From assembly GCA_001724265.1 (NCBI GenBank), contig MEDY01000042.1:1-64000 (forward strand): DNA of 64,000 nt. Direction: 5' to 3'. Of the stretch, positions 3,372-48,308 are shown piece after piece. Both the position numbers and the translations under genes were made by a program. The notes below the pieces were generated by a model that was not told the origin of the DNA, did no database searches, and saw nothing but the letters and a program-made list of their open reading frames with translations. The first letter of the stretch is position 1. The number at the start of each line of letters is the position of its first letter. The DNA is from Rhizaria sp. SCN 62-66. Taxonomy: Eukaryota.

Positions 3372-3420
<49 letters not shown>

Positions 3421-22317: not shown

Positions 22318-23258
22318 TCATTGAGATGATTCCGGCGTCGTACTCGTACTTGCTAGCAGTGCCGCCGAAGAGCTCCTGCTCGCTGAAGATTCGTGCACAG
22401 TTGCGTCCGTGTTGACAGGGCTGTAGCCAGCGGCGGCGAAGAGGTCGCGCAGCAACGCGCGGTCAAGCGGGCAGCGGCACTGCAGCTCGTCAAGCACGTG
22501 CCTTAGCTCGGGCTCCGCGGGCTCCACGAAACCGACCGACATCGGCAGGTCCAGCAGCAGCTAGTATGCTGCGCCGCTGAGCGCAACGACGGACAGACAT
22601 TCCCCGAGGATGTGTTGGTGTGGCTCTTGCAAGCAGGGGATATTGTCTGCGTCGACCTGCGAATATATCGTGTTGGGCTTGGGCTCCCTCGGGTACACAG
22701 GCTTGGCGTCAGGCGCATAGAGATGAGCGGGCGTGCGTGCACGGGCCTCATAAGGGCGCGTCGCGGCCTGTAGGTGGCGCGGACCGTCAATGAAGAACAA
22801 CACAGCGTTTGCAACCTGCCACATCACAGTATCAGCGGCGCCTCCCTAACAAGGAAGGAGGCCAGCTTCCTCCTCCTCCTCCTTACCCTCAGGCGCAGCA
22901 GGCGTGGGCTTCTCACCCGATACCGGCTGTGCCTCGTCCGCCTCCTCGTAAAGCGCCGCGTTCTTGTCGTCAACAAAAAAAGCAAACGACTTCGAGTGCA
23001 TCGGTGTCGGACAACTGATTCACGCTGTCCACGGGCTCCTGCACCGGCAAGGCAAGACTGGGTAGGGTCGCGGCGCGCTGGCACAGCTTGGAGCCCCGCC
23101 TTGAGTCTGGGATGGCCAGCTCCAGCCTAAGCACGTCTCTTCAGCATCAGCACTCTTAGGCGCCACCATCCACGTGCGAGCGCCGCGCTGCATACCCTGT
23201 ATTTCGCCTTCACCATCTGTGCGTCACCGTGCCGAGCATCCTTGTTAACGTCGCCACT

Positions 23259-23290
<32 letters not shown>

Positions 23291-23435
23291 TGTTGTCGTT
23301 GTTGTTGCTGCTGCATCGACAACTGTAAGGTTTTTGTCGTTGTCATCGTCAGAGTCGCAGTCACGGTTCCTCGTAAGAATAAAGTTACTAACGACAGCCG
23401 AAGCAAGCGTGCGTTGAGCTGCAGCTGTTTGACAT
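22318..23435 (-). pseudogene. Degenerate or mis-assembled gene, unknown product
   Basis: GC-rich island. Protein-like frame 22980->22318 (FVDDKNAALYEEADEAQP...LDRALLRDLFAAAGY...) contains two TAGs. Upstream, the protein-like text changes frame several times (near the A7 run at 22975-22981, ~23138, ~23222, and in the GTC/GTT repeat ~23259-23316). Upstream boundary approximate. Confidence 0.45.
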
Positions 23436-24258
23436 ATTGTATTTCATTCTTCGGCAGACTGTGAGATATCTCGAAGGCCATCAACAAAACTCTCACACCT
23501 AACCAAATCTACAAATACTTATATCATATTCATACTGAAATATATACAAACATAAACTGCATAATCATTGATGAAAATACAGTACACATAAATCACAATA
23601 TCTTGATTTGGTAAGCTAAAAGCAACATACAATGGATGTGTACAAATAATATAAGCTCACAAACAAATGCGTGAACTTTACAACAACTCTTGGATGCTAT
23701 ATCGGCGAGTATATGCTCTAAATCGAGTTGCAAGCAAGAAATACATGTTTCTCATATACAAGATGTTATAACAATTACATTTTCAAACATTAATACGTGA
23801 GAGTCATGTTTGCCAGAGATATCGTTAGATTTGTGCTTAAATCCAGCCCATTGCTCCGTGCTGTGGTAGTTCTCAGTGGTCTCGGCTTTGTCAGTCAAGA
23901 CGAAGCGGGACTCTAGTCCAAGTTATCCAGATGACTCGACGTCAAATAGCATTAGATTCTGTTCATTTATAGATATATATAATGACGCATTGCATTATTT
24001 TATGAACACATTTAGGCAGTGTCTATGAGATGTACGAGGTCAGGTTTTAGAGACTCAGTCTGTTCGATTCAACCGTGACAATCCATTTCTTGGAGAAATG
24101 GCCCTGCAGACTCAAATGACATCTTGTTCGAAATTTAGGCGCTCTGACGTGTTTTATCTCTTGCCTCACACATTATACTTTACTGGTGCGCTGGATTGAT
24201 CTTATTTTGTCACGGTAAGCTCTTCTTTTGAGCTGCTCGCTAAACTCACGGTTGCATC

Positions 24259-27200
24259 ATGAGCACAATCGGAGGCAATTCAAGCGCGGTAACACCTGTA
24301 CAGACAGTCGCTAAGCTCCAGGTGCCACATGCAGCACCCATCCCACCTGTGGATGAGCAACGGCGCTTGATTGACGCGACGCTGACGACCGTGTCGTGGC
24401 CTCCCGCGCCGTACTCGCCGGTGCCCCTGCTTCCGCTCCGCTGGCTCGCGCGGCTCGGCGCCCACCTCGGCCTCCAGTGGCAGAGCGCGGACACGATCGG
24501 GATTGCGCTTGCGTTTCCGCCCACGCGCTCCGCGGCTTAGGTTAAGGCTGCGCAAGAGGCCGCTTGCGCACAGCTGACCGCCGTGAACAAAGCGCGCCGT
24601 GAGCTCAATCTCAAACCACTGACCCCTGTCTCCGTGCTGCCCGGCTCCGGCGCTGACGACTACGAGCCCGGTCCCGCGGACCCCGATGTGGACATGTTGT
24701 ATGAGGCTGCGTGGGGCGATGCGGGGCCTTCCGCGGCCGGCGCAGTCCTCTCGCCCGGTCCGATCGACTTCAACCATCTCTTTGCTGTCGCGGACCCCTC
24801 TGCGGCCGCGACTGATGGCGATCTGCTCGCACCGCACGTGCTATCGGGCTCGTTCCGCTTTTCTGCTGCCAGTGGTGTTACTGCACATGCCGATACTACT
24901 GCTCAGACTGCCGTTGGCTCTAACTCGCCAGGCGCGGCTTATGAGAGCAGCGAGGGTTTTGACGGCGAGAGTGTGAACGGCTCCACAAGCTCGCCCAGCG
25001 TCGCCAGTGTTGAGGGCGGACACCGCACCAGCAACAAAAGCATCAAGAACAGCAAGGAGACTGATTTCCCAAATCGCCGCACTGCTCACTCGCGCTCAGT
25101 GTCCGACGCACAGCCAGTAACCTCACGGCAACAACGCGGCGGCGCGTGCTTGAACACAGAGAGTGATCAGTAGACACACCAGTCGCATCAGCTTGCGACA
25201 CTCACGCTGGCTGCGCCCGCGTTCATTGCAATTGCGCCGCAAGATTCAGTTGTATCTCAGGAACATTTGTTGCCCGATGCAACGGTACGTTCGACACAAC
25301 GTGCTTCATTCGATTTTTCGTATATTCGACTCTTTCATATCGTTATTTCGGGGACTTGTCACACCATCTCATTTTGCTCATTTCTTTTCTACATGTACAA
25401 TTTCTATAGAAGTTCCCACTGTGCTGGCGCAAGCACCTGCCCGTGCCGCGCGGCCGCACTGCGCTGCTATACGGCTGCGTGGGTGTGCCAGCGCCGCTGT
25501 TCCACTTGCTCAGCGGCTGGTACGGACTCGCCTCGTGCCCCGCGCTTGCCTCCTCAGTGCCACTTGCCACGACGCGCATCGGCGGCGCACTCGCGCGCAC
25601 GATCACGCTCGACCACACAGCATTCGTGCCACTTGCAGTGCCCGCAGCACCCACTGGGGGACCCACGCCATTCTTGCTCACGCGCGTGGCGCCAGCGAAG
25701 TCAGCTTCGGATAAATCGACCAGTCACAACGGATTGCCTGGGAGCTTTCGCGAGGAAGACGAAGATCACCACGGGGGCGATGACTCTGACGTACACAAAC
25801 GCCGTCGTACCGAGAGTCACAGCGATGTATTGGACGCGGCGTATGGCGGTACTAACTACAACCATGGCTTTCGTCACAACGATGCGCGCTTGCCACGGCA
25901 GCAACCCGTTCCGTCTACAGCGCCGCTGGTGCTGCCGCGTCTGGGTCCCGCCGCGCTGGTCGCGCTCACGGTCACCAGCCGCCCACAGCCCGAGATGACT
26001 GCGGCGGGCCCTGAGTCTGTCCCTGTTAACAGAGACGTTAACGACGTGTACACTGCGGCCGCCGCGACGCCGATGCCGCTGGAGGCCTTCTTGCGTGGGG
26101 CCGCGCAGGCCGTGCGCTTTGTTGTGCCCGCCGCTGCGTTGCATACGCGGCCCGCCGTGTCCGCGACGCGCGCTGCCGTCAAGCAGGCCGCCAAGGCCGC
26201 CGCGCCCCCCGTGGCGTGCTGGCCGTACCGACGCGTCGAGAGCGACAATGACGAGGAAACTGACAGCGGTGACAGCAACGATCCAGACTTCGATCTCTCG
26301 AAGGAGCTTTCCGCGGATGCTGCACAAGCGGCGGCCGCGGCGGTGCTGACCGACATTCCAGTGCTCACGCCGCGCGCGCTCGCCAGTCTGTTCCGCGCGC
26401 ACTCCGCGCTGCTATCTGCTCTTGCCGCCGCGTGTGACCCCGACGAGGAGGGCCGGAGCAGGGCCAGCGACGCTACAGTCACTGCGAACACGGCTCCGCG
26501 CGTGCTCGCCGCACTGGCCGCTTCCGACGATGCTGCCCAGGACGTCAAACATCCCTGGATTGAATCCGTGATTGCGTACGCACGCGTTCTTGCCTCGGCG
26601 GGCGGCGCGGTGTCGCCCGCAGTCACCGCCGCTGCGGCCGCCACGACGCTTACCCGCGCCCGACGCAGCGCTGAGACGGACAAGACGGCCGCCGCTGTGG
26701 CCGCTGCGCTTGACGAAGCCGCGCACCCAGTCAAGGCGATTACCGTCTGCTGGTGCAGTGCTGTGCGCGGCGCCAATGCTGAGCGCACGCTGCCCGCGCT
26801 ATTGCGAGCACTGCCGCGGTCCTCTGAGGCATCCGCAGCGACGGATACAGTGCTCACACTTGGCAATAACAGGTTTGCGGTGCGCGTTCCGGTGACAGAG
26901 GGCGCGAACACAGGCACGCCCTTGGTGCCAGCGCTGCTGAACGCGACGCTGCGCGCCATTGGCACTGTGTCGGTCGCAATAGACGACGACACGCTCGTTA
27001 GCGATCGTGGCCAACTCACGCTTGTCGTGTCCACAGAGCAGGTCACCAGTTAGCCCTCGCGACTTTCAGCTTGTGATTTGTCTGCACTTTCGTGGCTGCG
27101 CGCACCTACTGTGGCCCCAGGCGCGAACACACATGCAACCTCGGACATCGTTGTTGAGGGCTCGAGCAATGTACACTTAACCTTGGATCGCGCTGTGGCC

Positions 27201-30200
27201 GAGCTTGCTCGCCGGCGCCGGTGTCTGCATCCGCTGCTGCAGGCGAACTTCTCACGACCATCATATCAGGAAGTTTAGTCGCAGGTGGCAAAGCTGCGCG
27301 GCGTGCGCGGGCTACGCAATATCGGCAACACGTGCTATATGAACTCCATTCTGCAAGGTCTTCTCAACTCCCCAGCACTCACCGCGGCGCTTGCACGACC
27401 CGGAGTCGCTGGCGCGTTCAATTACGTCAGTGCCATGGGCGCCAAGGGTGAGCTTGCAGTTGCGTGGAGCAAGCTTGCCACACGCATTTGGCGGGCACCC
27501 AAAGCCGACACTTCGCGCGACTCTCAGGCTGTCACGTCGAGTCCGCAGCTGGTTGATATTGCGCTGAGGTGGAATGACCTGATTGTGACTGGACGGAATG
27601 AAATCACAGCAGCTAAACGCATTGATAAGAATGACCGTGCTCGTGCTGAGCGGGCACATAACTTCCTGGAGCAACAAAAGGAGCAGCAGCAAGAGGGCGG
27701 CGCCGCTGCTGGAGCTGTTGCAGTGGCAGCATCGGACGTGGTTCAGCTATTGCTGCAGCCCCCTGTACCGAAGACCCACGAGCCCATCACGGCAGTGGCA
27801 CCCCTGGACGTTAAGACACAATTGGGTGACATTGCTGAACAATTTAAGGGCAGTCGTCAGCACGACTCGTCAGAGCTTCTGACGGTGCTGCTGGACGGGC
27901 TTCAGGAAGACACGAACGCCGTTGTGTCGAAGCCCTATACGTCAAGTAACGACGCTTTGCAGAAGGACGGACTCAAAGTGTTTGCACTGGCCGAGTGGCG
28001 TCGGCACCTGATGCGCATTAACTCCCCGCTTGTGCGCACTTTTTACGGCCAGACATGCTCAATGCTGCGCTGCCTTGTCTGCGGCTCCGAGTCACGGACA
28101 GTTGAACCTTTCTCGTCGCTCGTCGTCCCACTCCCATCGCCACGCGTGCGCCTTGTGCTCACAGTCGTGCGCACGCGCGACCTTCCCGCACACGGCGCTG
28201 CGGCGGCCTCGACAGCGTCTGCCGCGTGGTCGCGCCGGGTCAGTGAGCTGGTGCTGTTCGTGCCTTCGCAGCTCACCGTCGCTCACATCCGCGCTGCGAT
28301 TGCCGCCCGCAACAAGTCGCAAACCTCGGCGCCAACTGAGAGCGCCGAGTGGTTTACGCCCGCACTTGACATGAAGCGCTCCGTGTTTGGCTACACGCGC
28401 GTGCACAAGCGCCACAGTTACGGAGGCATGCACAGCGCGGGCCACTTTTCTTCACGGTCACCAGTCTATTCCTATTCCGGCGGCGCGCGCAGTCGCAATG
28501 GCAGTAGTTTTGACGATGACGACGAGGATGGGAGTCATAAGAAGGACGACAATGGCCCGTTGGCTAGCTATCCTTCCTCAAGCGCCCCCGTCAAGAGCAT
28601 ATCATCTGCCATCGGCGCTGGTGCTGGTGCCGGCATGCGTCGTGAGGTCGCGCTGGTTGGCGACGATGACACGCTGGATGCCGTGATCACAGGCTTAGGC
28701 GCTGGCGATGATGACAATGATATAGACGACGATGACACCGGCAGTACCATTGGGTGTGGCAGGACACAACGCACATGTCGCCTGACTTTGTGGGAGCTGG
28801 AACGCTCCCCACTTGTCGACGTCCTCTTCACGCCCTCCGCTACAGGTTCGCGCTCTATCGTGTTGCTGCCTCTCGATATCGCACTTCCTTCTATCATCCC
28901 GAGTGGCGGTGACTCCGGCGCGTACGCTAAGAGCGCTCACACCGTTGCCGATCTGGACGGTCACCGCTGGGCCGCGCGTGCTGTGCCGCCGCTGCTGGTC
29001 CCGCTGCCGACTGAGATCACGCCAGCTGAGCTTATTGGTGCAATGCAACCATTTGCGCTCAAGTCGCTTAACGCTGCGGACGCAACTGCTGCCGCAGCCG
29101 CCGCAGCTGCTGCGGCGCAACGCAAGCTTACTGTTGCCGACGCAGTGCCATCTTTCGATGCAGCTGCAGACTCTGCGGCGACGATGAACGCGCAGACAGC
29201 TTTGCTGGCAGAGCGCTTGCGCGTTGAAAAGGCGAAAAAGGAGGCGGCTGCCGCGCGTGAGGCGAAGGCCCTTAAGCGCGAGCGCAAGGCGCGCGCCGCG
29301 GTCGATGAAATCAAGACTGCTGCTGCGAAGGAGGACCAAGATGCAGCCGCGTTCGTGAGCGGCGTTATCTCAGTCGCCGACCGCCACTGCCTGGCCGGCC
29401 TACCTGAGCCTGTGATTGCGTTTGCCGCCGCACACGCGTTGCGCAACTTCTGCGTTTCACTCACTTCTGCTGTTCCCACGCCCGATGAGCCGGCTTTGCC
29501 ACCCTGGCTGGCGCCGGCGCTTGCTGCCGTGGCTCTGTCGCTGCCTGCTGGCGCATTGACCATGGGTGCCCCATCCAACACCACCGAAGATTGGGCCAAG
29601 GCGTCGAGTTGGGCCAAGGTGTCGAGTTGGCAGCACGCGACAACCGACATCCTCGAGCGTCTTTGCCGGCGGGACGGCAGCGGCTACGGCTGCGCGCTGC
29701 CTGTTCCCGCTGCAGCGATTAACACCACGATCACTGCAAGTGGTGACGCCGAGCATGATTCCGCTCCGCGTGTGCCGCAGGTGCAGGCGCCATACAGCGG
29801 CGTGCCGCTGGTGCGTTGCGTTGGCGACAGCGTGCGCGCGCGACTGGCACTGCCCGCGGCGACGCCTGAGGGCGTGCGTGCCGCGCCTGTCGTGTTGCTT
29901 GGTCCCACGCTGCACACCACGCTTAGGACTATCAGCTGGCCCGCCATTGACTCCGCCTCGGCCTCTGCTTCCGCGTCTCCGAAGCGAGATGTGCTTTCAA
30001 TGGTGGAGTTGTGCCGGGAAAAGCTCAAGCTTGAGCGCGATAAGGAGCTCGATCGGATCGAGCGCGAAGCTGAGACAGAGTATGACAAAAAAAAGCGAGA
30101 TGAGGACGAACAAGCAATCGCAACGCTTTCGGAGCTCAACAATGTGTCTGTGTCTGTGTCCGTGGCTCGTCCCAAGCTCAACAAGTCCGCGGTCGCGTTC

Positions 30201-32696
30201 ATGTTCGGCGGCGCCTCCAGGTACCAACCCTCCGCTTCTGTGTCGAACCCAAGCCCCGCTTGTTCTGGCGCAAGTGGGACGTGCTTCCCTGCGCCAGGGG
30301 CCCCGTCAGCTGGCGATTCGCCGGGACAGTCGTTTTCGAGTGGCAATGCGCCGCTGACGGTGCCCGAGCACAGCCTGGCGCTGCCAACAGGCGACATGTC
30401 ACTCGCAGTGGCCACGCGTGCCGCGAATCGGCTTCCGTGGGGGGCTGGGGATTTTGTCGCTTTGTCGGGTGCCGCTGCTACTGCTGCCGCGGCTGCGTCT
30501 ACTATGAACACAGTTGAGCATACGTCTCGTCCATCCGCGGATGAAAGCATCGACATGGGGCTGACAAGCAGTATGATCTTCCCAAATACCGACCGCGACG
30601 ACGATGACTCCAACGACAATGACAACTACTCCGATTGTTATGACTACGACCGCCACAACGAGAGCGATGAGAGGGACGATGATCACGTCGACAACGACGA
30701 GATCAATGTCAATGCTAACGCTATTTTGGCCGCTAAGAATGCGGCCCAGGCGTGGCGCGCACGGACAGCAGGCGAGATCGCCGCCGCGCTCTCCGCGCTG
30801 CTGCCCTCCGCCGCCGGCGCCGCTGCTGTCAGTGGCGTCGCCGACAGGGTCGAGGCGATCCTCGCACGCGCGCTCTCAGCAGCTCCGGGCACCGGCTTGA
30901 ACGCTGGCGCTGGCGCTGGCGCTGGCGCTGCTGGCTGCTGGGAGGATCCCGTTGCTGCACGCTTCGCTGCCTACACTGCGGCGAACACGGCTTCCCAGCC
31001 GTGCGATGCTGTTCCTACTGTTGCTTCTGACACTGTCTTTATTGGGTCTCAGCCTAGCGGGCTCACTGTGCCCACTGCGGCGAGTAGCGTTGCGGCGACT
31101 GAAGGCACACCAGTCGTCTCGCGTCAAACCTCCGTGGAGGTCAATCCGCAAGACGCGTTCCGATTGGCCGCCGACGCCGCGGTCGCCGCGAATGCGGAGT
31201 TCGAACAGCTGAGTGCGACAGCCGACTCTCTCGCCAAGACCGAGCAGGGTATGGCAGCGGTTGTCGCTGGGGCGGTTGCTGACTTAGCTGTAGTCGCACG
31301 CCGCCGCGCAGCAGCTGTTGCTGCGTTAGCCGCGGCAAAGCGCAAGTCAGACGATGCACAGCGAAAGAAAAAGGCTGCGGCTTCGGTGCTGGCGGGCCCT
31401 CTGGACCCCTCATGGCTTGTCGTCGGTGATACAGCCAGAACCGAAGCAAAGGCCGGCGCGGCGTTGTGTGGTGCATACGCTCTGGCGCGCGCCGCGCCGC
31501 TGATGTGTCCCACAGCGTTTTACGTAACTACTGGCGCCGCGGCCGCCGACTCCGACGCCGAAGCCGGTGGTGAGGCTGAGGGCCAGAGTGAAGGCCAGAA
31601 TCAAAGCAACAACGAACATACTGAGGGCGATGCAAGCTGCAACGGTGGTGACATTGCCGCTGTTCTTGAGCCGATGAGTTCTGACCAACTCAAGGATCTC
31701 GTGTCCAATAAGCGTGCATTCGCGGCGCTGCAGGGTCGGCCCATTCCCACTCAGTCTGCGCAGAACCCCCACAACGCCGGATTCGATCATGACGCTTACA
31801 GCGAGGCTCGTGAGGGCGTGAACCCCAGCCCCGCTGCTGAGGCGGCTGCTGCGATTGGCGCCAACGCGAGTGCGGAGGCTGCCGAGTGCACGTACGTGCT
31901 CCAGCGCGTCCACGCTCGTGTGGACAAGGCCTTGCCTGAAAACCACACTCTTGCACAGTGTCTCGCTGCCTTCGTGGCGCCCGAGCGGATGGTCGGCGAC
32001 AACCAGCCGCGCTGTCGCAAGTGCGCGGACTCGTGTCCGGCGATCAAGACGCTTACGGTCGTCCGCTTACCGCCCGTGCTGGCTGTCGTGCTGAAGCGCT
32101 TTGACCCCATCGACCGGACCAAGTGCAACACACCTGTGACGTATCCGCTGCAGCTCGACATGACGCCCTACTGCGACGCGTCGGCGGGCGCGGGGGTATC
32201 GTCTCCGCAAAACAGTCACGATGCTGACAACGACAACGCGATGTATGATCTCACAGGCGCGTCCCTGCACTCTGGTAGTGTGTCGGGCGGCCATTACACG
32301 GCCATCGGGCGCAATCCCCTGTCGGGGCAGTGGTTTGACTACAACGACAGCTCGGTGTGCGCACTCGACTGCGCGGACGAAGCCGCGCTGCAGCGACGAG
32401 ATGCGTACGTGCTGTTTTACCACCGCCGCGGAGCCTACCAGGCACTGCAGGCGCGCTGGGGGCTTGCACCCGCGGGCGTCAGGGTCGCCGACAGCGCAGA
32501 CGATGTCGCGAAGGTCTGGGGTGCAGACGAGGACGTCAACGGCGATGACGAGAGTGGTGAGAACGGCCTATTTGAAGATGCTGGGGCCAGCAATCCTGGT
32601 GATAATCCAGTTGAAGATATTGTTGAGTTTAATCTTGATGACCCAGTAGATGAGCCGAACGAGTTTAGCGAGACTGCGAGTAACGCCTTCCAGTGA
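24259..32696 (+). CDS. Ubiquitin-specific protease (peptidase C19), DUSP-containing USP4/11/15-like, ~2,770 aa, with four in-frame TAG codons
   Basis: Cys box GLRNIGNTCYMNS (Cys 27333-27335), RQHDSSELL, CLVC/CRKC zinc pairs, LPPVLAVVLKRF, His box GGHY (32292-32294), WFDYNDS, DAYVLFY. DUSP-like pieces PLLPLRWLARLG, SPGPIDFNHLF, VPAPLFHLLSGWYG. Exons 24259..25284 and 25410..32696 (intron GTACGT...TATAG, phase 0). Internal TAGs at 24538, 25171, 27051, 27276; terminal TGA. Confidence 0.8.
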
Positions 32697-33278
32697 CTTC
32701 TTGTGAGTCTGCATTTTGACCACTTTTTACAGATTAAAACATGTTTTATTTTGAAATACACTTGCTCTATCCATTGATATCGCTCTTGGCTCCTCGACCA
32801 GGGGTACATTCATCCAACTATCTCCGACACGCTTATTCACTCGCCAACAGCCACAGGGACCATAACATTGTTACATGGTCGCCTAATCAGGAATGACAGA
32901 TACACGAATTTAAAGAAATAAACAAACAATGTCAATATAACATACACCTTGAAAGCATAGCTGTTGACGATTGCTAGAACACGTAATTCCTTTACGAGGA
33001 TGAGCGTCGACCGACAAGCTGAGTGTGGAATATTTGAAGGAGGAGACATAGAACAAGGAGGTATACTTTGTCGACTTGCACCATTGATAAAAAACCAAGA
33101 TATTTGTCTGCAAATTTACGCGTTCTATTGTTTTCTTGAAAATTGTTTCTCATAGTGCCTATTCTGTCTTGATATCCACGATTGGCATTAGCGACCACAA
33201 CTCGAGAGCTTCCAACCCTCAAGGAGCATTTCGGAGTAGCCAGACGCAGCTCGTCATTGGCGTTCGATTCAAATATCA

Positions 33279-36200
33279 ATGGCCGACCGCAACCAGGCAA
33301 AGCCTACCTCGCCTTCCGCAGCGCCGGCGGTCGATGCGCCAACCACTGCGGCTCCCGCGGGTAGGCATATTCCCGTTCCATCGTATCTGCCAACAGCTCC
33401 GCAGTCCGGACGCGCGGCCCCCACGTCGCCTTCCTACGTTGGACCACGCTCGCTGCAGCACCCGGCGACTGTCTCACGCCCGGGGCCAGTGTCTGTGGCG
33501 TCGCTGCTTCCGTCCTCGATGCTTGGCCCCGCGCAGCCTCCCTACGGGCACGCACAGCCTTCGTCGTGGCAGCTCTCTACCGCCTCCATCCCCGTCTCTG
33601 TTTCCGCCGTGGCGTCTTCCGCGGCGCAGGCCACAACAGGGCCGTACCACCCGCCCTTATACACCGCGCAGACGGGCGCACATGGACCGAGTTTTGCCCC
33701 AACCACACCAAGCTACACTATGAACTTCGCGAATAGCAGCAGTACGCACACAGGCAGCAATGCGTACAACAATGTCAGCAGCAGCAGTGTCGCACAGCCC
33801 GCGACAGTTGCGACGTATACCGGCTACGGCCCAGCGTACACAGTGCCTTTGTACCACTCTGCAGCCGGCGCAGGCGCCGCGTATGTCTCAACTGCCGCCG
33901 CCGCAGCGTCGTCATCGTCATCGTCGTCTGCGATGTATGCCGCGGGCGCTGCTGCCAATGCGTCACACACAGTGCCGGGACCGGGCTCTCTGCAGCTATC
34001 AGTAAATGCGCCACCCGCGTTGCCCTATGCACCCGCGGGAGGTTCATTCTTTGGCGCATCGAACCCAAGCAGCAGCCACAACTCGAACTCTGTTGCCAAT
34101 GCTGGCAGCTCTAGCGGTGCGGTGGGCATGTCGTCGCATCCAACAGGACCGTCATTTTCATTTCATTCCTCTGCGCCTGCTGTCTCCGGTGGCGCTGCAT
34201 TGGGGAGTGCTAATCAAGGCTCGTTCAATGCGAACTCATCGTACACCGGCGCTGCGTACAATCACGCTGCAGCGTACGGTGGCACTGGCGCAGGATACAC
34301 TGGAGCGCACACGCCTGGATTCGCGAGCCAACCACAGTATCACTACCCATATCAATATCAACCGTCTCAGCAGCAACAGCAGCAGCAGTATCAACAATAC
34401 CAGCAGTATCAACAGTATCAACATCAGCATCAGATACAGCAAGGTGGAGTGCAACCATTATCATCCCCCTTCACATCTTCTGCATCGTTTGCACCCCAAT
34501 CTCCTTACGTTCCCACAGCGACTGGCCCCAGCAGTCCTGTATTTACATTCTCCGCGCAACCCGCAACCGCTTTCGTGCAGTCTTTTTCTCACACCGCACA
34601 ATCGCCGTCGCAGCCCTTTCTGTTCCCTGCGCCAGCCTTTCTCGCCAGTCTGCGGCGCGGCCCGCCCGCGGCGCTTGCGTTGCCTTCTGAGGCCGCCGTC
34701 GCGCAGTGCGGCCTCTTTGTCCGCGCATGTCGCGCGCACATGCGGTCGCTGGTGAGCGCGCGCGCGCTGGACCCTTATCCACGACTCCCGCTTCACTTGC
34801 GCACCGCCGCGCTTGCCAGTGGTCGTGTGACTGCTGCGCGTGACTCAGCGCAACACACGCTGCCTGCACACGCACATTGGCCGATGATCTCGGCGTCGGA
34901 CGCATGCACTGTGATGGAAACGAAAGACGCAGCTGGGAAGCGTCATGAGTCTAATACGGCGTCGGTGTTAGCGGATGATGCCCAGTTCACGCTGTCTGCT
35001 GCGATGTCGGAGCTATCATCGATGTTTTCCCGCGCAACAGCCTCACGCATGCAGACTGCCGTACTTCAGGCCACTGAGACTGCATTTGCCTCTGCTTCAT
35101 CTGCGGTTAACACGACGCTCAGTTCGAGTGCGCCGCAGTGGCCCGCGAAAGGCGCCGCGCCGCCACGGGCACTGACGACTGCGCTGTCGATTGTATGCAC
35201 GTTGATGGCTCTGTCTGAGTCTTTCACCGAGTCACAGTCCGAATGCATCGCGACCGTGCCCCGCGTCATGACGCAAAGAGCTTTACTGCACCAGAGCAGC
35301 GGCCACAGCAATGATGCCGAGAAACCACGCAACGATGCGGTGGCAACCGCAGCAATTTACGTTCATGCCTTCCGTGGACTGTCCGCACTTCCGCCGCGCG
35401 CATTGCCGCGACCGGCGCGTTTTCCTTCTCTTTCCGACCCCGACGTAGACGGAGACAACTCTGTGACTGAGCTCGAAGGCGACACCGAATCCGCGACGGA
35501 CACCGCTGGCGGCGACACCCGCAGGCTGCCGGCGCTGCCTGCTCCACGCACGACGGGTGTTGATGGCGACTGCACAGACAATGAGGCTGACTTCAGCTCG
35601 ATTGGCGGAGTGTCGGCTGCGCGCACTATTGGTGCAACGCGGCGCCAACGCAATAGACGCGACGAGGCTGACGATACTATGGGCAAGGAGGATGAATTAT
35701 TGAAGCATGAGGAACCGCTTGAGGCTGATGAGCCAAGTGTTTACACGCTGCCGCCGCCGCTGCCGCCCCGCGGCTACCATCCTGCCGCGCTCGCCGCCTC
35801 GCTGCTGGCCGACGCGCGCTCTTAGCTGCCCCAGCTCTCCGAGTCGCCCAGCGCGGTCCGCTTTGGCTGCTTTGCGCCGGCGGTGCGCGACTCGACGCTG
35901 CGGCTTGTGCGCGCGGACCCCGCGGTGCTGGCGCTGGGTTGCGACGGCGCGCTCCCACCCTCGTCGCTCGCAACGCTGCTCTCGCGCCGCGGCGGGCTCT
36001 CGCGCGCCGCGGTGGCTGAGCTCGTGCGCTCCGGCGCGCTGACGCTGCCAGAGCTTGAGGCGCTTGACGCGCGCCGTACCGCACGCCGCGATGAGCGCCG
36101 CGCCGCGCGCTACGAGCGCCACGCTGCTCGACGCGCTGCAAAAGCAGAACCCGCTGCGAGTGCTAGTGCGAGTGCGAGTGCTGACGAGAGCAAGGTCGAT

Positions 36201-39200
36201 GTGGGAGCTGCTGTCGCACGCGAGAGGGCCCGCGAGAGCGCAGATGCCGCTGTGGTGGCTGAAGCCGCTGCTGTGGCGATGCGTGAGAGCGATCCCATGG
36301 CTGTTTTAGGCCGTGGTATGGCTCTTATCGCGATCACAGCCGCTTTACCGCGTCTGCGTGCACGGGCGCAACAGCTTCACTCGAACGCAGAGTCCGTTGA
36401 GAAGAACTCAGGCGAGAGTGTGACTGCAAGCAACTCTACCCCGAGCACGGGAGTCGTTCCGGAGGCGAAGCACCGTGACGCGAGCGTCAGCGCAGCTGAA
36501 ACCGTAACGACAGACTCGAATGCCGCACTTAGTGTGGAACAAGCCCGTGCAATGTTTTCTGCAGTGCTCCATCGTATGGTATCCCCGTCCCCGCCAATGT
36601 CATTGCCATTTGCACCGGCGACAGCAACTCAGCTTACGACCAGTGCGAAGGTTGGCGTGGCGACCTGGGCAGCAGCGGCACGCTTCCTACCTCTGGGCCC
36701 TCTCTCCCTCCACCGGCCGCCAGTATCTCCATTGCTTGCTGCTGATGCGTTGTTGCGGCGTTCTCGCGCAATCGCGATGCTGGGCCCCGGTACTGTTGTG
36801 CGGGGCATTGTAGTCGCGATCGAGCCCATCAAGGAAGTCAAGCCGCGTGCGAGCAAAGACACTGCTGCCACAACTGCGGCAACGACGGAAGTGAAGAGCG
36901 CCACATCAACTGATGTCAAGGCTGCATCTGACGCCGCCAAAGACGCTGCCGCCGCCGCCGCTGCCGCTGCTGCAGCTGCTGCTGCGGCGCCCGCGACGAA
37001 GGGGAAGAGCAAGGCAAATACTGCGGCGGCCCGCAAGCGCGCTGCTGCAGCAGAGGCCGCCGCGGCCGCCGCTGCCACGGCCGCCGCCGCTGCCGCCACT
37101 ACGGCTGCAGCCGCCGCCCCCGCAGCGACGGAGCCAGCCGCTGCCCCGCGCCCCGCGCCGCGATGCCGAGTGCGGCTGCTGCTGGTGAAGGCGTACCCCA
37201 CGCCCGCTGCGCTGCACGCGATGGGTCCTCTGGCCGCCGCGGCCGCCGACGCCGCGTCAGCGCCGGTGCCCGGACTGGAGCAGTGGGCACTGGCGTCGAC
37301 ACCCTTTGCATCAGGCACGATTCGCGCTCCGTTTGGCCCCATGTACCCCATGCACCCGATTCCGACCACTTCGCAGCCGCAGGACGCCATGGCGCGCGGC
37401 GGCGCGAGCGCGGAGGACTGCCCGCCCGCGCTCACTGCTTCCAGCGCGAGTGCGGCGGCGAGCGCCGCCACTGTCGCGCCGCCCCGGCGCGCGGGCTGGC
37501 CGACCGCGGCGGGCGCGGCGGCCGCGGCTTGCGCGCTGCAGAGGCTGGCCATGGGCTCGGCGGCCGCGGCGACAGCGGCGCTCAACGACTACACACCCAA
37601 ACACGCGCTCTCGGCTGCGGCCACGGCGGCGGCGTTTGCGGCATCGCGGGCGGCGACAGCGGCAGCTCGCGCTGCTGCAGCCGCGGACTGCCAGCTTTGG
37701 GGCATTGCTTTGCGAGACACGCGCAAACTAGCATCTTCTGTGAGTAAAATCGAGATTGCAGCAGCCCCTGCAGCGACTGCGCGGGCCGTCACTGCAACAT
37801 TGCCAGTGTGGTCTGTGTCTGTCGCAGCACAAGGTGGCCTTTGCGAACTCCTTGATGCTGAGACTTCATTACTGCCGCGAGATCCTCTGTACTTGCCGAT
37901 GCCTGCGCTTCCAGAGAGCTTGACGACTGACGCTGTGGCTCCTGCTGAGTTCTTACCCACTGAGTTGTTACCACAATCATCCGTGTCTAGTCGAGGCGCA
38001 GCAACGCTGCTTGTGCTTCCATGCTCACTTCCTCGTTTCACACTCGCAGACCCCACCGTGACCGTGCTTCCACCGCCACTATCAACATTCTCGTCACCGC
38101 GCGCCCTTGCGCTGCACGCCGCGCGCCCCGCCGTGTTTTGGCGCGCTGGCTGGTGGTTTGTTGAACGCGGTGCGCGCGCACATACCAGCGCACTCTCCGG
38201 TAGCGCGCTTTACAGCAGCGACGCTGCTTCAAGTGCGTCCCCATTTTGCGCCGAAACAGAACTTGCAGCGATGCTCGATGCAGCCGCGGCACCCACAACC
38301 GATGACCTTGCTTACTGGGGTGTGTTTCCGCTCTCTTCAGGACATGCAGCTGCAGCGGTCAATTCTCTCACAAGTCTCTCTCCCTCTGCTTCAGGCTTAC
38401 ACAATACTGGACAAGCACCAGCGAATGCCAGCAGCGACACTGGTAGGTTGAAGCGTGAGTTCGGCCGCCCTCCTGGTCACGCTTGGCGCGATGTCCCGGG
38501 CCTGACTGCAGGCGCAGGTGCCGCCGCGAGCGCTGCCGCTGCGGCCGCGTGGTGCGCCGCGTTCGACGGCGTCCACGAGCTGGGAATTGAAGTCACCTTC
38601 GACATCACGGCTGCACCGGAGCCTGTGGCACCGGTATCGCTTGCAGTTGACGCCGCAGGCGAGAACGACACCAACGCTGGCGGAGTTAAGTCACCCCGTG
38701 GTGGAAGGCGCGCGGGATCGCCGGCCAAGCGCCAGGCGTCGCCCGCTTCGGCCTCTGCGACTGCGACGCCGCAGGCAACACCCACTGGGGGCGTGGCTGG
38801 CGGCAGGAAGAAGCGTGCGAACAACTCAGCGGCCGTCGCTAACGCGGCTGTTTCTGCGGCCGCTGCCGTCGCTGACACTGAAGCCGCTGACGGCACGATA
38901 CCTGTTGACAATGCACCGGATCCAAGCGATGATGCGTGCGCTGCGCCTCTGTGGGACAGCACCGCCGTATCACAGCCCTTGCGTGTGCGCATGCCCAGTG
39001 GTGGAGTGTTGACTGTGGGGTGCCAGGCTAAGGCGCTCGTTGTCGCCACTGATACGCTCACTGGTATTGTCGCCGCCACCGTGGCCAGCGAAAGCCTGGT
39101 TTGGCTCGGAGCCCGCCACAAGCTTGGGCAATACCCCCAAGCGCGCCTTGCTTCGTTAACAGCGCAGCGCGGCGCGGCGAGTACGATGGGTGACAAAGAC

Positions 39201-42200
39201 CCCAGCGAGAACGCTTCTCTTGCGCCAGCGCCTGTGCCTGTGGTCGTGGTAACGCCTGCTCGTGGCTGCGGACAGCAGGAACAGCCCACGACTGCGGAGT
39301 ATCCCGCCCCGGCATCCCCGCCCGCTTTGGCCACAGATTCGCCTTCGTCGCCGCCACAGGTGCCGCAGTGGCTGCCTCGCTGGGCCGCAGCGCGCTACAC
39401 GGCAGTGTTTGCTCTGTGCCGCGCCGTTGTTGACGCGGAGGTTCGCGCACTTCTGCGTTCCGGCACGCTGACTGAGACGACGTTTCTTTGCTGTGGTGGG
39501 GACTGCTGCCAGCGGCATGAGAACGAGGTTCTCGCCGCGATCGCCAATGAAAACGCGCTTTCATCATCAAACAAGCAGCTTCCACAGTCTTTGCTCCCCG
39601 GCTTTGCCCCGGCTGCCGCTCTGAACGCGGCCACGAGCGCCGCAGTCGTCACTGACGCCGCTGGCAGGCCTGCGCTCTCGTCATTGCCAGTTCTCCCGCG
39701 CGCCCACGCGTTTCCCCCACCCCCCGTCCAGTCTCCTCCGCCGTTAGACTCCACTGAGGCCCAGACCGCGCTGGCCGCGCTGCTGCCCGATAGCCGCGCT
39801 GCGCTGCGGCTATCGAAGCTTTGGAAGCTGCTCGCTCCGACTCATGCTCCTGCTCCTGCTGTAGTGTCTGCCGCACCTGCTTCATCGAGTGCCGCGGAGG
39901 CACTGAACGCACAAGCAAAGCCTCCCGCAGATACGCCGCTTGCGCGCGTGCTGCCGACTGCGACTGTCACTCCGAACGCAAACGCCTGCACAGTGTCGGC
40001 GTGTACCGGTGGCTGCGGTGGCTGCACAGGTCATGTTGCAGTTCCACAGTCAATCTTGACTAAGATGCGCGCTGCGGCTGCGAATGTGGTTGCACTGGAG
40101 CTGGCTGCGGTTGTTCAATACTCACATCTTTCCACGGTTTCAACAACAGTTACGACGGGACTGCTTGCGTCCGCCGTCACGCTTGCCCTTTCCGCACCTG
40201 CAACTGCACTTGCAACAGCAACTTGCGCCGAGACACGTAACCACGCGAGTGTAGGAACCACGAACGAACACGCGAGTGCGAGTGCTAATGCTACTGCGAG
40301 CGCAATGACTGTGAGGAGTGCTTCGACACAAATTGTGCCAGCATTGTGCACAGCACCACGCGTGTCGCTGCATGTTGGTGCCGGACTGGCGCTGCCGGTG
40401 GCCGCATGCACGGGCGAGCTCTACAACGTCACGTCGCTTGCAGGGGCTGCACTTGGGTTTGAACCCCCACGCACTCTGCAGCAACAACAACAGCAGCATC
40501 AGTTGCTACAGGCGCACGCGTTCCACAGCTCGCGAATGCCAGTCGGCAGCGTGACCGCAACGTCGCCGTTCTACAGCGGTCCATCAATGCGTACTTCGAC
40601 CGCAGCCGCTGAGGTTGCGCAGTCCCCACATGGCCCCGTCGCGAATCGCGGTTACGGCGCGAGCGCCGCCGCCCAGAGCTCGATGTCGTTGTCGATGATC
40701 GGCACTGTTCCCGTCACCGCTGCGACGGCTGCGTCGCCGTTTTACCTCCCCCCCGCGCCGTACCCGACCGTTGGCAACACGAACAACGGCCCTAACGCAG
40801 GTGGCGCTGGCAGTAGCAGCTCGTGGCGCGGACCGGGCGGCACGCCTGCTGCCACGATGCGCTCGACTATCCCAATGCCGTCCCCACACTCGCAAATGAC
40901 AACGCTGCTAACGGGAGGTGTGCCAACGATGCCGCTGGTCCCGGCCGCGCGCGTGAGTCTTGCATTGCCACCCGCTGCGCTGTTAGCGCGCGTGCGCGCG
41001 AGCGTGTTTTTCCGGAATCTCGACGGCGTTGCACTTCTCACCGAGGCTGCAGGCGCCACGCCGTACGCATCGCTGTTAGACGCGCCGTTCTTGTTTTTTG
41101 GCCCGCAAGAGTCGTTTAACGCCTTGCGCACCGCGCAGTTTTCGTCGTGGGCTTTGGTGTCGTTCTTCAAGGGACTGACGAACATCGCACTTGCTGTGGC
41201 ACAGCTTGTCAACACAGCAAGCACCGCTGGTAACGAGGCTGTGACTGTAAACACTGTGACTTCAGCCGTCACCTCGTTCAATCACGCACGCGAGTCCGAG
41301 CCGGAATTCTTGGCAGCAAAGCTGGGCCAACTCGCGGCAACAGTGCTACCTGCTGTGCACCTGTTTGCTGCCGCGCCCGCCGGTGGCATTCAGGCCACCG
41401 ACAACGCAGCCGCTTCCACTGCCAATTCTGCGAACCGCGATGGCGGCGACGTCGCTGCGCCCGTGACAGCAGCTACCGAGCCGCCAGCGTCAGGTGCTGT
41501 TGCAGCGACTGCTGCAGCGACAAAAGCACTCAACCAGATGTTCGACCACTTTGCGTCTGCACTTGCGCCATCAGCGACGCCTGTGCTGCCCCCGGCACAG
41601 GTCCGCCGCGCACAACGCTGGCTTTCACTTGCACGCCGGCTTTTGCGCATTGCACCGTGCGCATCCGAGCCCGCTTCGCTTTACGCGACAGAGATGAACG
41701 ACGAGGTGATCAGTGCTGAAGCAGATGCGTGCGCTGTCGTTGCCGCTCTTGTGCCGGATCTAGCCCAATGTGCTGCGACGTCTTCGACCGCGGCGGCGTG
41801 TCCCGCTCCATCCACCGTTGTGCCGACTCTGGCACCACTGCCACTGCCGCTGCAGTCAAGCGTGCTCCACGGATTGCTTCCCCCACTCACGTCATCGACG
41901 GCCACGCTTCCGTCACTTGCGCCTCTCGCGTCCATTCCGTTGCCAGGATCAGCCCCTGTCTCTATCACGACACAGGCGTCTGCGACTGTTACAGCGCATG
42001 CCGAGCAGCGCGCACGCTTGGCGACACACTCAAGGCTGGCTGTCGGCGCAACTCCGACCACAGGCCCTATTGCGACGCGAATGCAGCGCTTATCATCATT
42101 GACGCGGTCAATTCAAATGGAAGACCGTCTCATCACTGCGGCGCGTGCGAGTTCAGGCTCAGGGCTTCCGCCCGCAGCTGCCAGCTCTACTAACGCACCT

Positions 42201-45200
42201 GCGGGCGCAGGGACCGCAGTCGCAGGGTCGCACGCGTCCACGTCCGCTGCTGGCAAGGCGGCTGCTGCCCGAGCGGACGGCTCAGCTCCGGCGGGCCGCA
42301 GCGGGGCGACTGCGACTCTCGCCGCAACCACTTCAGGCGCCCGTGCTGCTGCCGCCTCCGCCGCCGCCGCTGCTGGTTCTGTGGGAGCGGATGGCGTCAA
42401 GCTGCAGTCTCGTGACGGCGCTGGCGCGGTGTCAAGCGGAGGCTTCCATCCTCCCCCGCTGCGGACCTCTGCCGCCGCTGCAGCAGCCGCTGCAGCGCCA
42501 GGCACTAGCGCGCAGGGCCTTGGCCCGTGGCCGCACGCGAACGGCGCCGCTGGAGCCCCACTCTCAACTGGCGCGGCCGCAGCGAACGCGCTGAGCTTTG
42601 CGGCCGCGCACGCGCGTACGACACAGGTCGCCGGCGCGGGCGCACGTGGCGTGAGTGCAGGCGGCACTCTTAGCGCGGCTAATGACAGCTTGACGCGTGG
42701 GTTTGGCGCGATTGACAGTGACTTGCACCGATGGCTGAACCCTTCTCCGATCCCCGCAGTGACTTTGGCGACGCTGCTGCCCGACCCGACGCTCGCGCCA
42801 CCGGGCGCCGTCCACGGGGGCCGTTCGTTACTGCCGCAGTCAAGCTCATTCGTGCAAATCCCAGGTGCGCACGCACAAACTGCAGCAGGAATGCAGCAAC
42901 AGCTGCCTCACCAGCAGACATTTCTCGGCTACCAGCAGCAAACTGTTCCCGTCGCGACGACAACGACAGCTGGATTTTTCGGTCCTGCAGTCGCTGTGCC
43001 GACCGAGCCCAAGTCGCCGTTGCTCCGGCTGCTGTCGCCGCGTCTCCCGGGACATGAGTCGCCCACGTCGCTGCCGCCGCTGGACTCGCCGCGCCGCAAC
43101 CGCGGGCGCGACAACGGCGACGACAACGGCGACGACGGGCTGTTGCCGATGGATGACGCGCCTGGAGCGTTCTCGCCGCTGATCGGACCGCAGCTCGCCG
43201 GAGCCAATGCGAGTCCGATCGCGCCCGGTAGCAGCGGCGGCGCGGGCGGGCCGGCGCGCACTGTGGCCGTGCCGCCCCCGCTGGAGCTGCCCACGCTGTC
43301 GCAACGCAGAGCCACCGCAGGTCCCGGCTTCTCTGCGGCGGCGGCATCGGGCCCTGCGCGGGCGGGCGAGTCAGCTGCAGAGCGTGCGAGCGCGACTGCG
43401 TTCGACGGTGTTGATCGTCAGGTGCAGGCGGGTGGATTGGCTCTCATGCGGAACGCAGCTGAATCAGCCGCTGCAGCTACGGCTTATGCGACTAGCTCGC
43501 GTGGGCTCAAACGTGGTCTAGACCAGCAAAATGCAACATCTGTGGTTGCTAATAGTAGCATTGAGACATCCGAGCACATTCAACAGCACCAAAAACGTCC
43601 GCGTGCTGCCAACGAAGTTTCCCCGACTGGCGGCGTTCCATTTGAACTTCCCGCGATTGTAGTTAATACCACCGCTGATGCGGCATCTGTTGCCGTGACT
43701 GAAGATACTGGTCCCCGCGCTGTGCGGTTTGCGGACACCGTTGTGACTGTGGCCCCTCGGCCGCGCTACCCCGATCTTGACTCGCCGCTTCCCGTGCGCG
43801 ACACACAGGGTGACGCGGCCACGGTTTCACGCTCTGAACCCGCTGCATCACCAACCCCTGTGGCCGCGCTTGCGTTTTCTGACAGCACCCGTGACGACGG
43901 GTTCGCCATTCGAGAGGCTCCTACCGGAGCATGTCACAGTCGGTCACACAGCCGTACTTCTATCATCGGCTTTGCCTGCAACGACAGTGTTGCTGCGGGC
44001 GATACACGAGAGCAGGCTCCTGTGTCTCATGAGCAGACTGCTGCGATCCGCCTTTCTGCAGCTACGACTGGTTCAGATAACACGGCTGGGAGTCCGGCTG
44101 CGGGCAACGGTGTTAATACGCTTACGACGCGCACTGTGGACGACACGTTTATCCCGCTCATCGGTCCGCGTCGCACAGCGTCCATGGTATCTGTTCCTGT
44201 CTCCGGTGCCGATAAGGGCGGTGCATGCGGTGGCACTAGCGGTGTCCATGATGACGACGACGACGATGATGACGATGACGATGACGCAAACACTGCTGCG
44301 GCGTTGCCACCGCGAAGCCCGCGCGTTGTTCGTGAAAGAGGCGTTTTGGCGTCAGCTTCAAGAACATCGGCTCTTGATTTAGATGCAGTGTCAGCGTTGA
44401 TGCCACGCCCTGTCTCTGCAGCACTGCTTGCTGCCACACAGAGTGACCACCACCTCTCACACTCACAAGGAGAGAGTTGTGACAATGATGACGACGGTGC
44501 AAGCATGCGGTTTCCTCCATCACAGGGGGTGTCGCGCGCACAATCACGTGCATCTTCGCGCCACGGCACGCATGCGAATGTCGGAAATGAAGATGAGACG
44601 GGGTATGACGGAGATTCGGTGACAGCTGTTGCCCTTGACATTGATTCAGCGCAAAAACGAGCAGCAACGCGTGCGGCGCGTGGATCGCACGCGCCGAGCA
44701 ACATATCGCGACTTAGCTTTGATACTGGCGCCGCGATCTTGGCTTCTGAGTGCTCTCAGTCTCCTGATGGGCGCTCGAGGCAGCAGTTACCTGTACACTC
44801 TCTTCCGATCCCCCATGTGTTGCCGGCTTCACAGGCTCAATCACGCGCGCAGTCGCGTGTTCAGTCGCGGGCAGAGTCACCAGCTGCGCGCACAGTGACG
44901 ATCGCGAGTGGTGCAGCTGTCCCCGCTGCAGTGTCAATGTCTGGTGGTGTTGTGCGCGCGTCTCCGCCCGCATCTCAGCCGCTCTCGCGCTCTCATTCGC
45001 GGACTCACTCGCGCTCGCAGTCCGCAGTGTGGTCGATTGCGGCGGCGCTCGACGTTAACGACGATGACGATGATACCAAGAGCAGCGTCGGGAACAAAAG
45101 GGTTCAGCGGCCCATGCGCGACAGCGATGACGGCATTAAACTGGAGTACTCGCGCAACACCAACACTGATTGTGTCGCTGCCGCTACCACTGATGCAATC

Positions 45201-48200
45201 GTCCCAATGGGAGATAGTCACACAGACTTAGACGGAGCATGCAGGAGTGGCGATGCCCCCCGCATTGTTCATGCTCATGCTGCCGTGCCATCGGCAAAAC
45301 TTGAGGGCACGTCCAATTCAGCTGGTGCTGCTGCTCAAACGTCGACTATCCCTGCAACGGCGTCCGCCTCTGAAGCAGCAGATGTGGTCGATGAGAGGGC
45401 CTTTGAAGGCGACCCAGCTCTTGATGCCACTGCGAGCGCGACTGACGCTGCTGCTGCAGCTGCCACCGCTGCAGTTGCTGCTGCTGAAGCTGCTGCTGCC
45501 GCTGCTGACGCTGCGATCACCGAGAACAACCTCCTTTTCCCACTAGACCCAGTGTCACCGCAACTGTACTCCCCCATCGACGAGGGCGACGACGGGGATC
45601 TCGGCTTTGCCGCGCACCGCGCTAGGGACAGATCCGACGACTCTGGTGGCGGCAGCGGTAGCGGCGGCGACGGCAACGGCACTTTCGTGTTTCCCTACAA
45701 TTTGCACCACCACCACGGCAGCCAGCAACCGCAGCAGCACCAACCGATGTACGGCGGGATCCATGCGCTGCACTATGACAGCAGCGGCTCGCGAAGCGGA
45801 CTGGGCACGCGCAGCGGCAGCGGCGCTGGCGCCGGGCTAGGCGCGGTTCCAGGCACCTTAACGCACGCTGCTTTGCACGCCAAAAGCGGCGGTCGTGATG
45901 AGAGCGGCAGCGGCCGGGACTCGATTCCGCTTCCCCGTGCTGACTCTGCCACAGGTACTGCTGTGACACATCGCACTCTGCTCCCTTCTTCCGCTGCTGC
46001 TGCCGCCGTGGCAGCAGGTGTGGCTGCAACTGCGGTCGGCGGGGGCCCGTCTGTCACCGGTACGGCGGGTGACAGCGCGACAGCTGCCGCGGCCGCCGCG
46101 GAGGCACAGGCGCAGCAGCAGCGTCGCGCCGCCGCGGTCGCCCGTCGCCAGGCGAGTTCGCGCTCTCCGTGCGTGCTGTTTGACAGCGCGGACGTCGCGG
46201 CAATGCACGCCGACCGCGCGGCGCTGTACGCAGACCGCGCCGGCGCCACTGCGCAATTCCTTCGCGGCCCCGCAGTCGAGCGGCTGAGCGACGGTCAAAC
46301 CGCCACGGAGACTGGAAGCAGCGGTGCCGCGCAGGGCGGCGCTGCAGCTGCAGATGGCTCTGGTGGTGGTGTGGCGCGCCAAGGTCGCTACGGACCGTAC
46401 TCGCTTGCGAGCGCGTTGCCCGACTTGTCGCTGATGGGCGCGAGCGACGTGACGCGCACACTGGAGAGCATGCGTGTCGGCGTGCACCAACAACCGCATT
46501 TGCAATCTCACGTTCACCCACAATCTCAGACCAGTCAACTTGTTGCACCTTTGCCAGTGCCGCTGACAAGCTCTGCTGCAACTGCGTTATCGGCTCCGCT
46601 TCCGTTGCCGCTGCCGGTACCACTAACAGCCTCAACTTCTTCGCTTGCAGCGCAGTCACTGCCTGCCCCGTTACCAGTGCCGTTGATGGCCTCCATCCGC
46701 ACAGCAGCGGCGCCTCAACAACAGATGCATAAGCCGCAGCAAGAGCAGCAGCCTCCAGCGCAAGTCCCATTCACTTCTCTCGCACTGAACAACCGCTTCT
46801 CGTTCGAAAGCTCCGGTGACAGCGACGGTGCGCGGCTCACAGACGCATCTACTGCTGTTGCCGCGTTGGTCACCGAGGTCGGCTCAGAGAGGACAGCCGC
46901 TCCACCGGCTCTGTTGGCGATGACTGACACTGATGGCATCAATGCAGCGGCTAGAAGCAGTCCGGGTGCAGCAGCTGCTGCCATTATTGCTGCTGGAGAT
47001 CAAAACGTTAACATGCAGCACCAAAGCAATCGTCGCACGGTCGACGACGTCGGTGTTGCGAATGATGCGGACTCTGCTGCAGGCGACAACGATTCCCTTG
47101 CACCTCTCGGTTTCGACGGCAGCCGCGAGACGTCACACGGCGACGACGATGACGACGATGACAACGGCGGACACGGCTTTGCTGGTGATTTCGCGCAGCT
47201 TCGGTATGCGCAGAACCAGCCACATGGACAACATGGCTCCTTTGGCCTCCGCCGATCGTTCACAAACAGGCCTCCTGCCCCGCCAACGCTTGATTCGTCA
47301 CCGCCGCTGACCAACGCAGTCGCACCAGCGGTAGTGCCGCCGCCAGTGGGCGGAGCGGCGACTGACGTGACTCGTGCAAACGCCGCCGGTGAACACGGGT
47401 CGCAGACGGGTGTGAGTTCGCAGACTGCACCCCTTATTGCTTCGCACCTGGTGCGCCGCGGCACTGGCAACAGCACAGGTGCTTCTAACGCGAACAACGG
47501 CGGGCATAGCAAGGTCCCTCCAATCGTACCGACTTTTAGTCCTACTTTGCCCGGCCGCCGCATTGTTGCCGCCGTGTCCTCAGCGTCGCAGGCATCAATC
47601 CCAAGCGGTCCGCTTTCGCTGAGTACCAGCGCCCTTAATATGACTGTTTCCGCACGTGATATGAACCAATCTGCTGCCGAAACTGCTAATGCTAGCGGTG
47701 ACAGCAGCGGTAACGGCAGCACGCCTGTTGACGGTAATGGTGAGCTTCCTTGGCCACCGCTGTCGTTCGAATGGTCGCGCGAGGGCAGCGGAGACAGTAT
47801 GCGTGCAATGCCAGACTCTGAAGCACGCGCTCGGTTGTTACCACTGCTTGACCTGTCCGCAATGCCAGAGCCAGCGACTGTGGTGATGAGCAACGGGGAT
47901 ACAACCGCAAACAATGCGAACGACATTGCGACGGTAGGCCATGTTGCGGCGCTTGCAGACGGAGTTGGGACGACGCACACCGTTGCTAGCACTGCGCCGA
48001 CTGCGTCAAACACGACACTCACTGCCCCTGTTGGCGCTGGGACGTTGTCTGCGATGGTCGGAAGCGAGACACCGGCCGTGTCGACAGTATTGGCTCCGGG
48101 ACTGAGCGCCCTCATGTCGTTAATGCGCGACAGCACTGCGACTGCTCTGGCAACAAACAATAGCAACGCAAACCACACGGTCACACCGACCGTCAACACG

Positions 48201-48308
48201 AACACTGTGTCGACACAGGCGAGCAACACTGCGGGTGACGCTGCTGCCAGCGCTCATGCTGCCGTTGACGATCCTCATCCGACGTCATCTCAGGAGACCC
48301 ACAAGTAA
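33279..48308 (+). CDS. TTC14-like (S1 domain + TPR) protein expanded to ~5,009 aa, one in-frame TAG
   Basis: ORFs 33279..35825 and 35883..48308 share a frame, separated only by TAG 35823-35825. Blocks resembling my recollection of TTC14 occur in order: PPVSPLL..RR..LGPGTVVRGIVVAI (~36714-36822), GVHELGIEVTFDI (~38568), LTVGCQAKALVVATD..SESL..KLG (~39009-39135), FFRNLDGVALL..SL..ALRTAQFSSWAL..FKG (~41007-41174), AVTSFNHARESEPEF. Ends TAA. Family call is from memory, not a search. Confidence 0.6.

Follow-up and report, generated by a model that had tools for sequence, protein, structure and literature searches.

Few eukaryotic lineages are known in which UAG alone has been reassigned (PMC5304391, PMC11687900). 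In the portions of these reports on which we draw, the rhizarian exLh reads UAG as Leu (384 UAG in 71 genes, with 56 ends in UAA and 15 in UGA) and Iotanema spirale reads it as Gln (204 UAG in 126 genes, with 104 ends in UAA and 15 in UGA; PMC5304391), and UAG-only codes are also given for Scotinosphaera (Ser), several phyllopharyngean ciliates and Protocruzia tuzeti (PMC11687900). Here we analyze a 64,000-nucleotide stretch of eukaryotic nuclear DNA (positions 1 to 64,000 of contig MEDY01000042.1, Rhizaria sp. SCN 62-66; hereafter the window) from an uncultured wastewater eukaryote, for which an initial annotation had reported seven in-frame TAG codons and proposed a nuclear code with UAG as sense and UAA and UGA as stops. 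We find that the TAGs are genuine DNA, in frame and flanked by coding sequence, and that TAG closes none of the window's genes. That UAG is translated here, through a change of the nuclear code that turns UAG alone from stop to sense while UAA and UGA still terminate, has in our assessment about an even chance of being correct. A topic search of the literature found no paper on UAG as a sense codon in a wastewater protist.

All seven codons are present as reported, five read as TAG on the plus strand and two as CTA for the minus strand (Table 1). We scored the 37 codons on each side of every TAG with a codon log-odds model trained on the TAG-free coding sequence (CDS) of the window, with the cut-off set at 0.2, below which 5% of true CDS windows fall. 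None of the 14 flanks contains an in-frame stop, and in 12 of them the frame of the TAG scores above 0.2 and above the other two frames. The exceptions are the stretches that precede 25171 (-0.7) and 27276 (-6.3), both of which score weakly. Across 16,059 codons in 11 CDS pieces we counted seven in-frame TAG, no TAA and no TGA; the exons of genes G9 and G11/12 stand outside this count, and their only TAGs are intronic or at acceptors. With same-frame coding on 12 of 14 flanks and neither TAA nor TGA in the open reading frames (ORFs), the description of the TAGs as interrupting a continuous GC-rich coding frame holds.

Four of the TAGs fall within a single gene for a ubiquitin-specific protease (USP). 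Its translation (2770 codons, 8.3 kb) is free of frameshifts, and its Cys, QQD-like, zinc-ribbon and His boxes are all readable. There is no ATG between TAG no. 4 and the Cys box, so that a working enzyme needs all four TAGs to be passed. Databases list this gene as fragments of 536 and 1803 residues, and the ORF fragments P0136 and P0158 end at the TAG at 27051; at present, automated gene prediction breaks the genes of this organism at TAG. The remaining three TAGs lie in its neighbors, two in the small gene G4 and one in the very long gene G6, and neither of these contains a frameshift. For G4, coding score and GC periodicity favor the minus strand, and the plus-strand reading resembles antisense junk; it has no family in Pfam or the ESM Atlas and its predicted fold is poor.

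Contigs from sequencing run X4, which differs from the likely source runs in both study and year, cover all five plus-strand and both minus-strand TAGs, with no difference listed at any of them. Elsewhere in 15 kb X4 differs at four single-letter positions and by one 5-base deletion, and its contig over 24407-25934 carries one further unlisted difference whose position cannot be placed. X4 behaves as DNA, since its contigs span intergenic spacers and the unspliced USP intron. Because the same TAGs recur in contigs of a different study and year, we reject base error as their origin. A database copy of the 25410-27053 ORF from a separate source also stops at the same residue. A polyA library (X9) contributed contigs at 25866-26276 and 26468-26891, in the interval that separates TAG no. 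2 from TAG no. 3, although polyA libraries may contain DNA.

Ten gene ends could be defined in the window, six of them TAA, four TGA and none TAG. The eight TAA and TGA ends given in the initial annotation are correct, and we add TGA 22318-22320 of the minus-strand gene and TGA 10442-10444. Downstream of nine of the ten, GC drops to 0.35-0.49 and at least one further in-frame stop follows within 37 codons; at the exceptional end, TGA 10442-10444, coding carries on in another frame. Two other candidate ends, TAA 62337-62339 and TAG-TAA 54970-54975, were set aside as intronic. As in a UAG-only code, UAG is never a terminator in the window while UAA and UGA are kept as stops, in a small sample (n = 10): if TAG normally closes 20-25% of genes, the probability of seeing none among ten is ~0.06-0.11. 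In-frame stops that are exclusively UAG, and terminators restricted to UAA and UGA, mostly UAA, are what the sections we draw on describe for exLh and Iotanema spirale. UAG is likewise uncoupled from UAA, as in the phyllopharyngean ciliates, Protocruzia tuzeti and Scotinosphaera in the portions of the literature cited above. The window shows no sign of a ciliate or a green alga, and its contig is long (397 kb, according to the cluster record) and GC-rich with canonical GTACG introns.

How improbable an all-TAG set is depends on the null. The earlier figure of 1/1287 is arithmetically correct, but its null is poor, mixes separate questions and overstates the significance. Composition does not predict the set, because TAG makes up only 107 of 813 off-frame stops on the sense strand (13%) and 227 of 967 antisense stops (23%); under this null, P(7/7) is ~6e-7 to 3e-5. 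A one-step mutation null built on observed codon usage predicts TAG for 0.58-0.60 of in-frame stops, giving P(5/5) of ~0.07 and P(7/7) of ~0.025. As a separate observation, TAG+CTA counted over all frames of the coding regions occurs at 5-13 per kb, 3-4 times less often than TGA+TCA (16-33 per kb), at equal base composition.

The mutation spectrum bears on an explanation that keeps the standard code, in which the TAGs are nonsense mutations fixed in three dispensable or decaying neighbor genes of a clonal population. This we regard as unlikely, though it accounts for several features: the spectrum favors TAG, the seven TAGs are clustered in adjacent genes, none is inside a conserved domain, G4 is an orphan whose predicted fold is poor, and a frameshift may separate ORFs 2483-10444 and 10102-21516 where a 15-nt x 6.7 repeat ends. 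It fits poorly with the USP gene, which would have taken four hits without a TGA, a TAA or a frameshift in 8.3 kb, its catalytic motifs and intron phase intact. That number of hits would imply ~1% neutral divergence, which should also have brought several indels. The mixed stops, frameshifts and motif loss of pseudogenes are not what we see in USP, G4 and G6, where the only stops are TAG and the UCH domain is intact. Also at odds with nonsense alleles are the closing of none of ten genes by TAG, the persistence of the TAGs unchanged across samples of different studies and years, and the presence in a polyA library of sequence upstream of two TAGs. Nor is there a signature of repeat-induced point mutation, with TpA/ApT at 0.48-0.90 and (CpA+TpG)/(ApC+GpT) at 1.08-1.33.

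T precedes five of the seven in-frame TAGs, against a T share of 0.13-0.26 in reference sets (P 0.001-0.016, post hoc). A specific mutational route, deamination of T-CAG to T-TAG, was considered and rejected: it needs ~25% of the T|CAG in the TAG-bearing block to have been converted, and the share of synonymous xTT|W codons there is 49/147, compared with ~0.5 expected and with 93/259 outside the block, so that no TpC-to-TpT footprint is seen. The TpC deamination model leaves the preference for T before TAG unexplained.

The same preference could instead be a context effect, again post hoc, if UAG were ambiguous, that is, a stop in principle that is efficiently suppressed or read through here by a natural suppressor or near-cognate tRNA. 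The very low usage of UAG and its unevenness between genes would suit such ambiguity, which we nevertheless consider improbable. Programmed stop-codon readthrough usually concerns a single terminal stop set in a defined context or structure. Here too the ribosome would pass UAG, but a gene may contain as many as four sites, all internal, and the sites share neither downstream context nor structure. The TAGs are followed by G, A, C, T, C, G and C, with no common motif, and all seven downstream 80-nt stretches fold no better than shuffles (z -0.99 to +1.35; none of the seven with z < -1), which speaks against the programmed readthrough raised as an alternative in the initial annotation. Suppression at four sites in one gene would have to be near complete at each, and no gene in the window ends in the TAG that is supposedly a stop.

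A further possibility is that the mature mRNA no longer carries the TAGs, whether they are spliced out as acceptors of unrecognized introns or altered by RNA editing. TAG qualifies as a YAG acceptor, five of the seven sites read TTAG as several real acceptors in the window do, and no RNA contig bridges a TAG. Only five donor-like sites lie within 600 nt upstream of the TAGs; none of them would yield an intron whose length is divisible by 3, and the GC of such introns would be 0.56-0.73, compared with 0.28-0.43 in real ones. The flanks, moreover, code in one continuous frame. Cryptic introns, also named earlier as an alternative, lack a GTACG-type donor and an AT-rich body upstream of the TAGs, and we know of no nuclear A-to-I or U-to-C recoding of this kind in protists. 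We regard both splicing and editing as very improbable.

Translation of UAG as a sense codon would involve a tRNA with anticodon CUA and a release factor that reads UAG poorly, so that ribosomes pass the seven TAGs; translation of the TAGs is itself something we infer. The proposal of a UAG-only code stands insofar as its pattern is present and base error, introns and context-driven readthrough fail, and is thin insofar as it draws on seven codons, none of them at a conserved position, in one window. Several observations weigh against it. The all-TAG set is only mildly unlikely under the one-step mutation null. The TAGs are confined to three of ~11 genes, adjacent and within 13 kb; their block comprises 3,846 of 16,073 counted codons (scan approximation p ~1.3e-3), and the other ~12,200 codons contain none (G2 and G3, 6,342; G6 after 35826, 4,160; the PCNA and carrier genes). 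TAG usage is 0.34-0.44 per 1000 codons vs 24.8 for CAG, ~25 times below expectation for a neutral CAG synonym. No TAG stands at a conserved position or in a Pfam-matched segment, no frame of the flank preceding 27276 scores as coding, and the possible frameshift at 10400 may mean that ORFs on this contig are disrupted in other ways as well. The window contains no tRNA gene. Contigs from the polyA library X9 and from X7 bridge neither a TAG nor the USP intron, a missing cover that is uninformative. Finally, no homologue in the searched collections covers the TAG-bearing regions.

The last point follows from several searches. In word-based protein searches with the USP region, run at near and at shorter lengths, the matches were limited to fragments from this organism and distant USPs, and P0136 and P0002 were the only hits at E <= 1e-30 when 1.84 billion representatives were scanned in full with HMMER. 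A metagenome scan with the USP protein, whose query patterns were low-complexity, gave no match, and for the pre-catalytic part of the protein these searches found no homologues outside this organism. A DUSP domain in USP exon 1 was considered and rejected: a profile of seven USP homologues that contain DUSP (six fungal UBP12-type proteins and one metagenome protein) matched only GPIDxxxL, at 0 bits, and Pfam reported no DUSP there. This differs from exLh and Iotanema, where, in the portions of the report we draw on, many UAG at conserved positions identify the amino acid; the window has seven UAG in three genes, none at a conserved position. It also sets the organism apart from both that its DNA is GC-rich and its PCNA is at most 53% identical to that of any named species.

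Usage as rare as ~0.4 per 1000 codons would fit a reassignment that is recent or still weakly used. We tentatively suggest, as something short of probable, a UAG-only code at an early stage, in which UAG would have vanished as a terminator and would serve as sense at that frequency, preferentially after U. If true, such a code would be a natural snapshot of codon capture, and its very low UAG usage would help to test the uncoupling of UAG from UAA and the nearly-unused-codon stage in reassignment. It would also add a further UAG-only case from a lineage without a close sequenced relative, for which a long-contig metagenome assembly already exists.

Table 1 Positions of the in-frame TAG codons, the genes that carry them and other features of the window.
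Feature	Position	Strand	Description
G4	22318..23001	-	Orphan gene, 227 codons, two TAGs; ends TGA (22320-22318)
G4 second TAG	22561..22563	-	In small orphan gene G4
G4 TAG	22846..22848	-	In small orphan gene G4
USP exon 1	24259..25284	+	342 codons; ATG after AT-rich spacer; phase-0 end at GTACGT donor
TAG no. 1	24538..24540	+	USP exon 1, codon 94; unchanged in contigs of runs X3 and X4
TAG no. 2	25171..25173	+	USP exon 1, 37 codons upstream of intron donor
USP intron	25285..25409	+	125 nt, GC 0.37, GTACGT...TATAG; joins exon frames exactly
USP exon 2	25410..32696	+	UCH catalytic domain (Pfam PF00443, E = 3.6e-51); ends TGA 32694-32696
TAG no. 3	27051..27053	+	USP exon 2; X4 contig 26969-27814 with 0 differences
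TAG no. 4	27276..27278	+	USP exon 2, 10 codons upstream of catalytic Cys box
G6	33279..48308	+	5009 codons from ATG 33279, Ala/Ser/Thr/Gln-rich, low-complexity, one TAG, no known domain; ends TAA (48306-48308)
G6 TAG	35823..35825	+	Codon 849 of 5009; X4 contig 35792-36753 with 0 differences
PCNA gene	48794..49875	-	Intron 49541-49833; 0 TAG; ends TAA; splicing and terminator control
Mitochondrial-carrier gene	50499..52293	-	Intron 51603-51765; 0 TAG; ends TAA
Intron-related sites	25285, 54963, ~56085, ~56662, 60736, 62301	+	
Intron-related sites	49833, 51765, 59593	-	

Pfam identifies a USP/UCH deubiquitinase, PCNA and a mitochondrial carrier in the window, in which genes with a GC of 0.6-0.75 are separated by AT-rich spacers. 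At least part of its DNA occurs in 13 runs from eight studies (bioreactor, wastewater and microbial-fuel-cell metagenomes). The best match of PCNA is a metagenome protein, P0015, with 85% identity, on a 21-kb contig, and the best among named species is from Aphanomyces, with 53% identity; judged by its sequence, the organism is without a close sequenced relative. Neither P0020 nor an exact 38-base pattern from the window had a match in the prokaryote genome collection, and Rfam and ARAGORN scans of the window returned no RNA genes.

Ten spliceosomal introns are directly readable in the window, all with YAG acceptors; the five measured are 125-293 nt long with a GC of 0.28-0.43. Donors read GTACG(T/A/C) in eight of the ten and GTATGT or GTACTT in the others, an unusual uniformity, and many of these short, AT-rich introns lie close to gene 5' ends. 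Exon 1 of the mitochondrial-carrier gene (51766-52293, minus strand) spans 176 codons and encodes an N-terminal extension without a known family. G9 (53797-57449) and G11/12 (60647-64000, running past the end of the window) are multi-exon and have no Pfam family.

Giant ORFs rich in Ala, Ser, Thr and Gln, of 2653, ~3689 and 5009 codons, lie within 2483-21516 and 33279-48308 and have no Pfam domain. Between ORFs 2483-10444 and 10102-21516 the frame changes without an AT-rich spacer, at the end of the tandem repeat (10300-10399). The TGA that closes the first ORF (10442-10444) shares its last base with an ATG (10444-10446), and GC at third codon positions falls from 0.84 to 0.69 across the junction (10102-10446), which may reflect a frameshift, an indel in the assembly or a pair of genes that abut.

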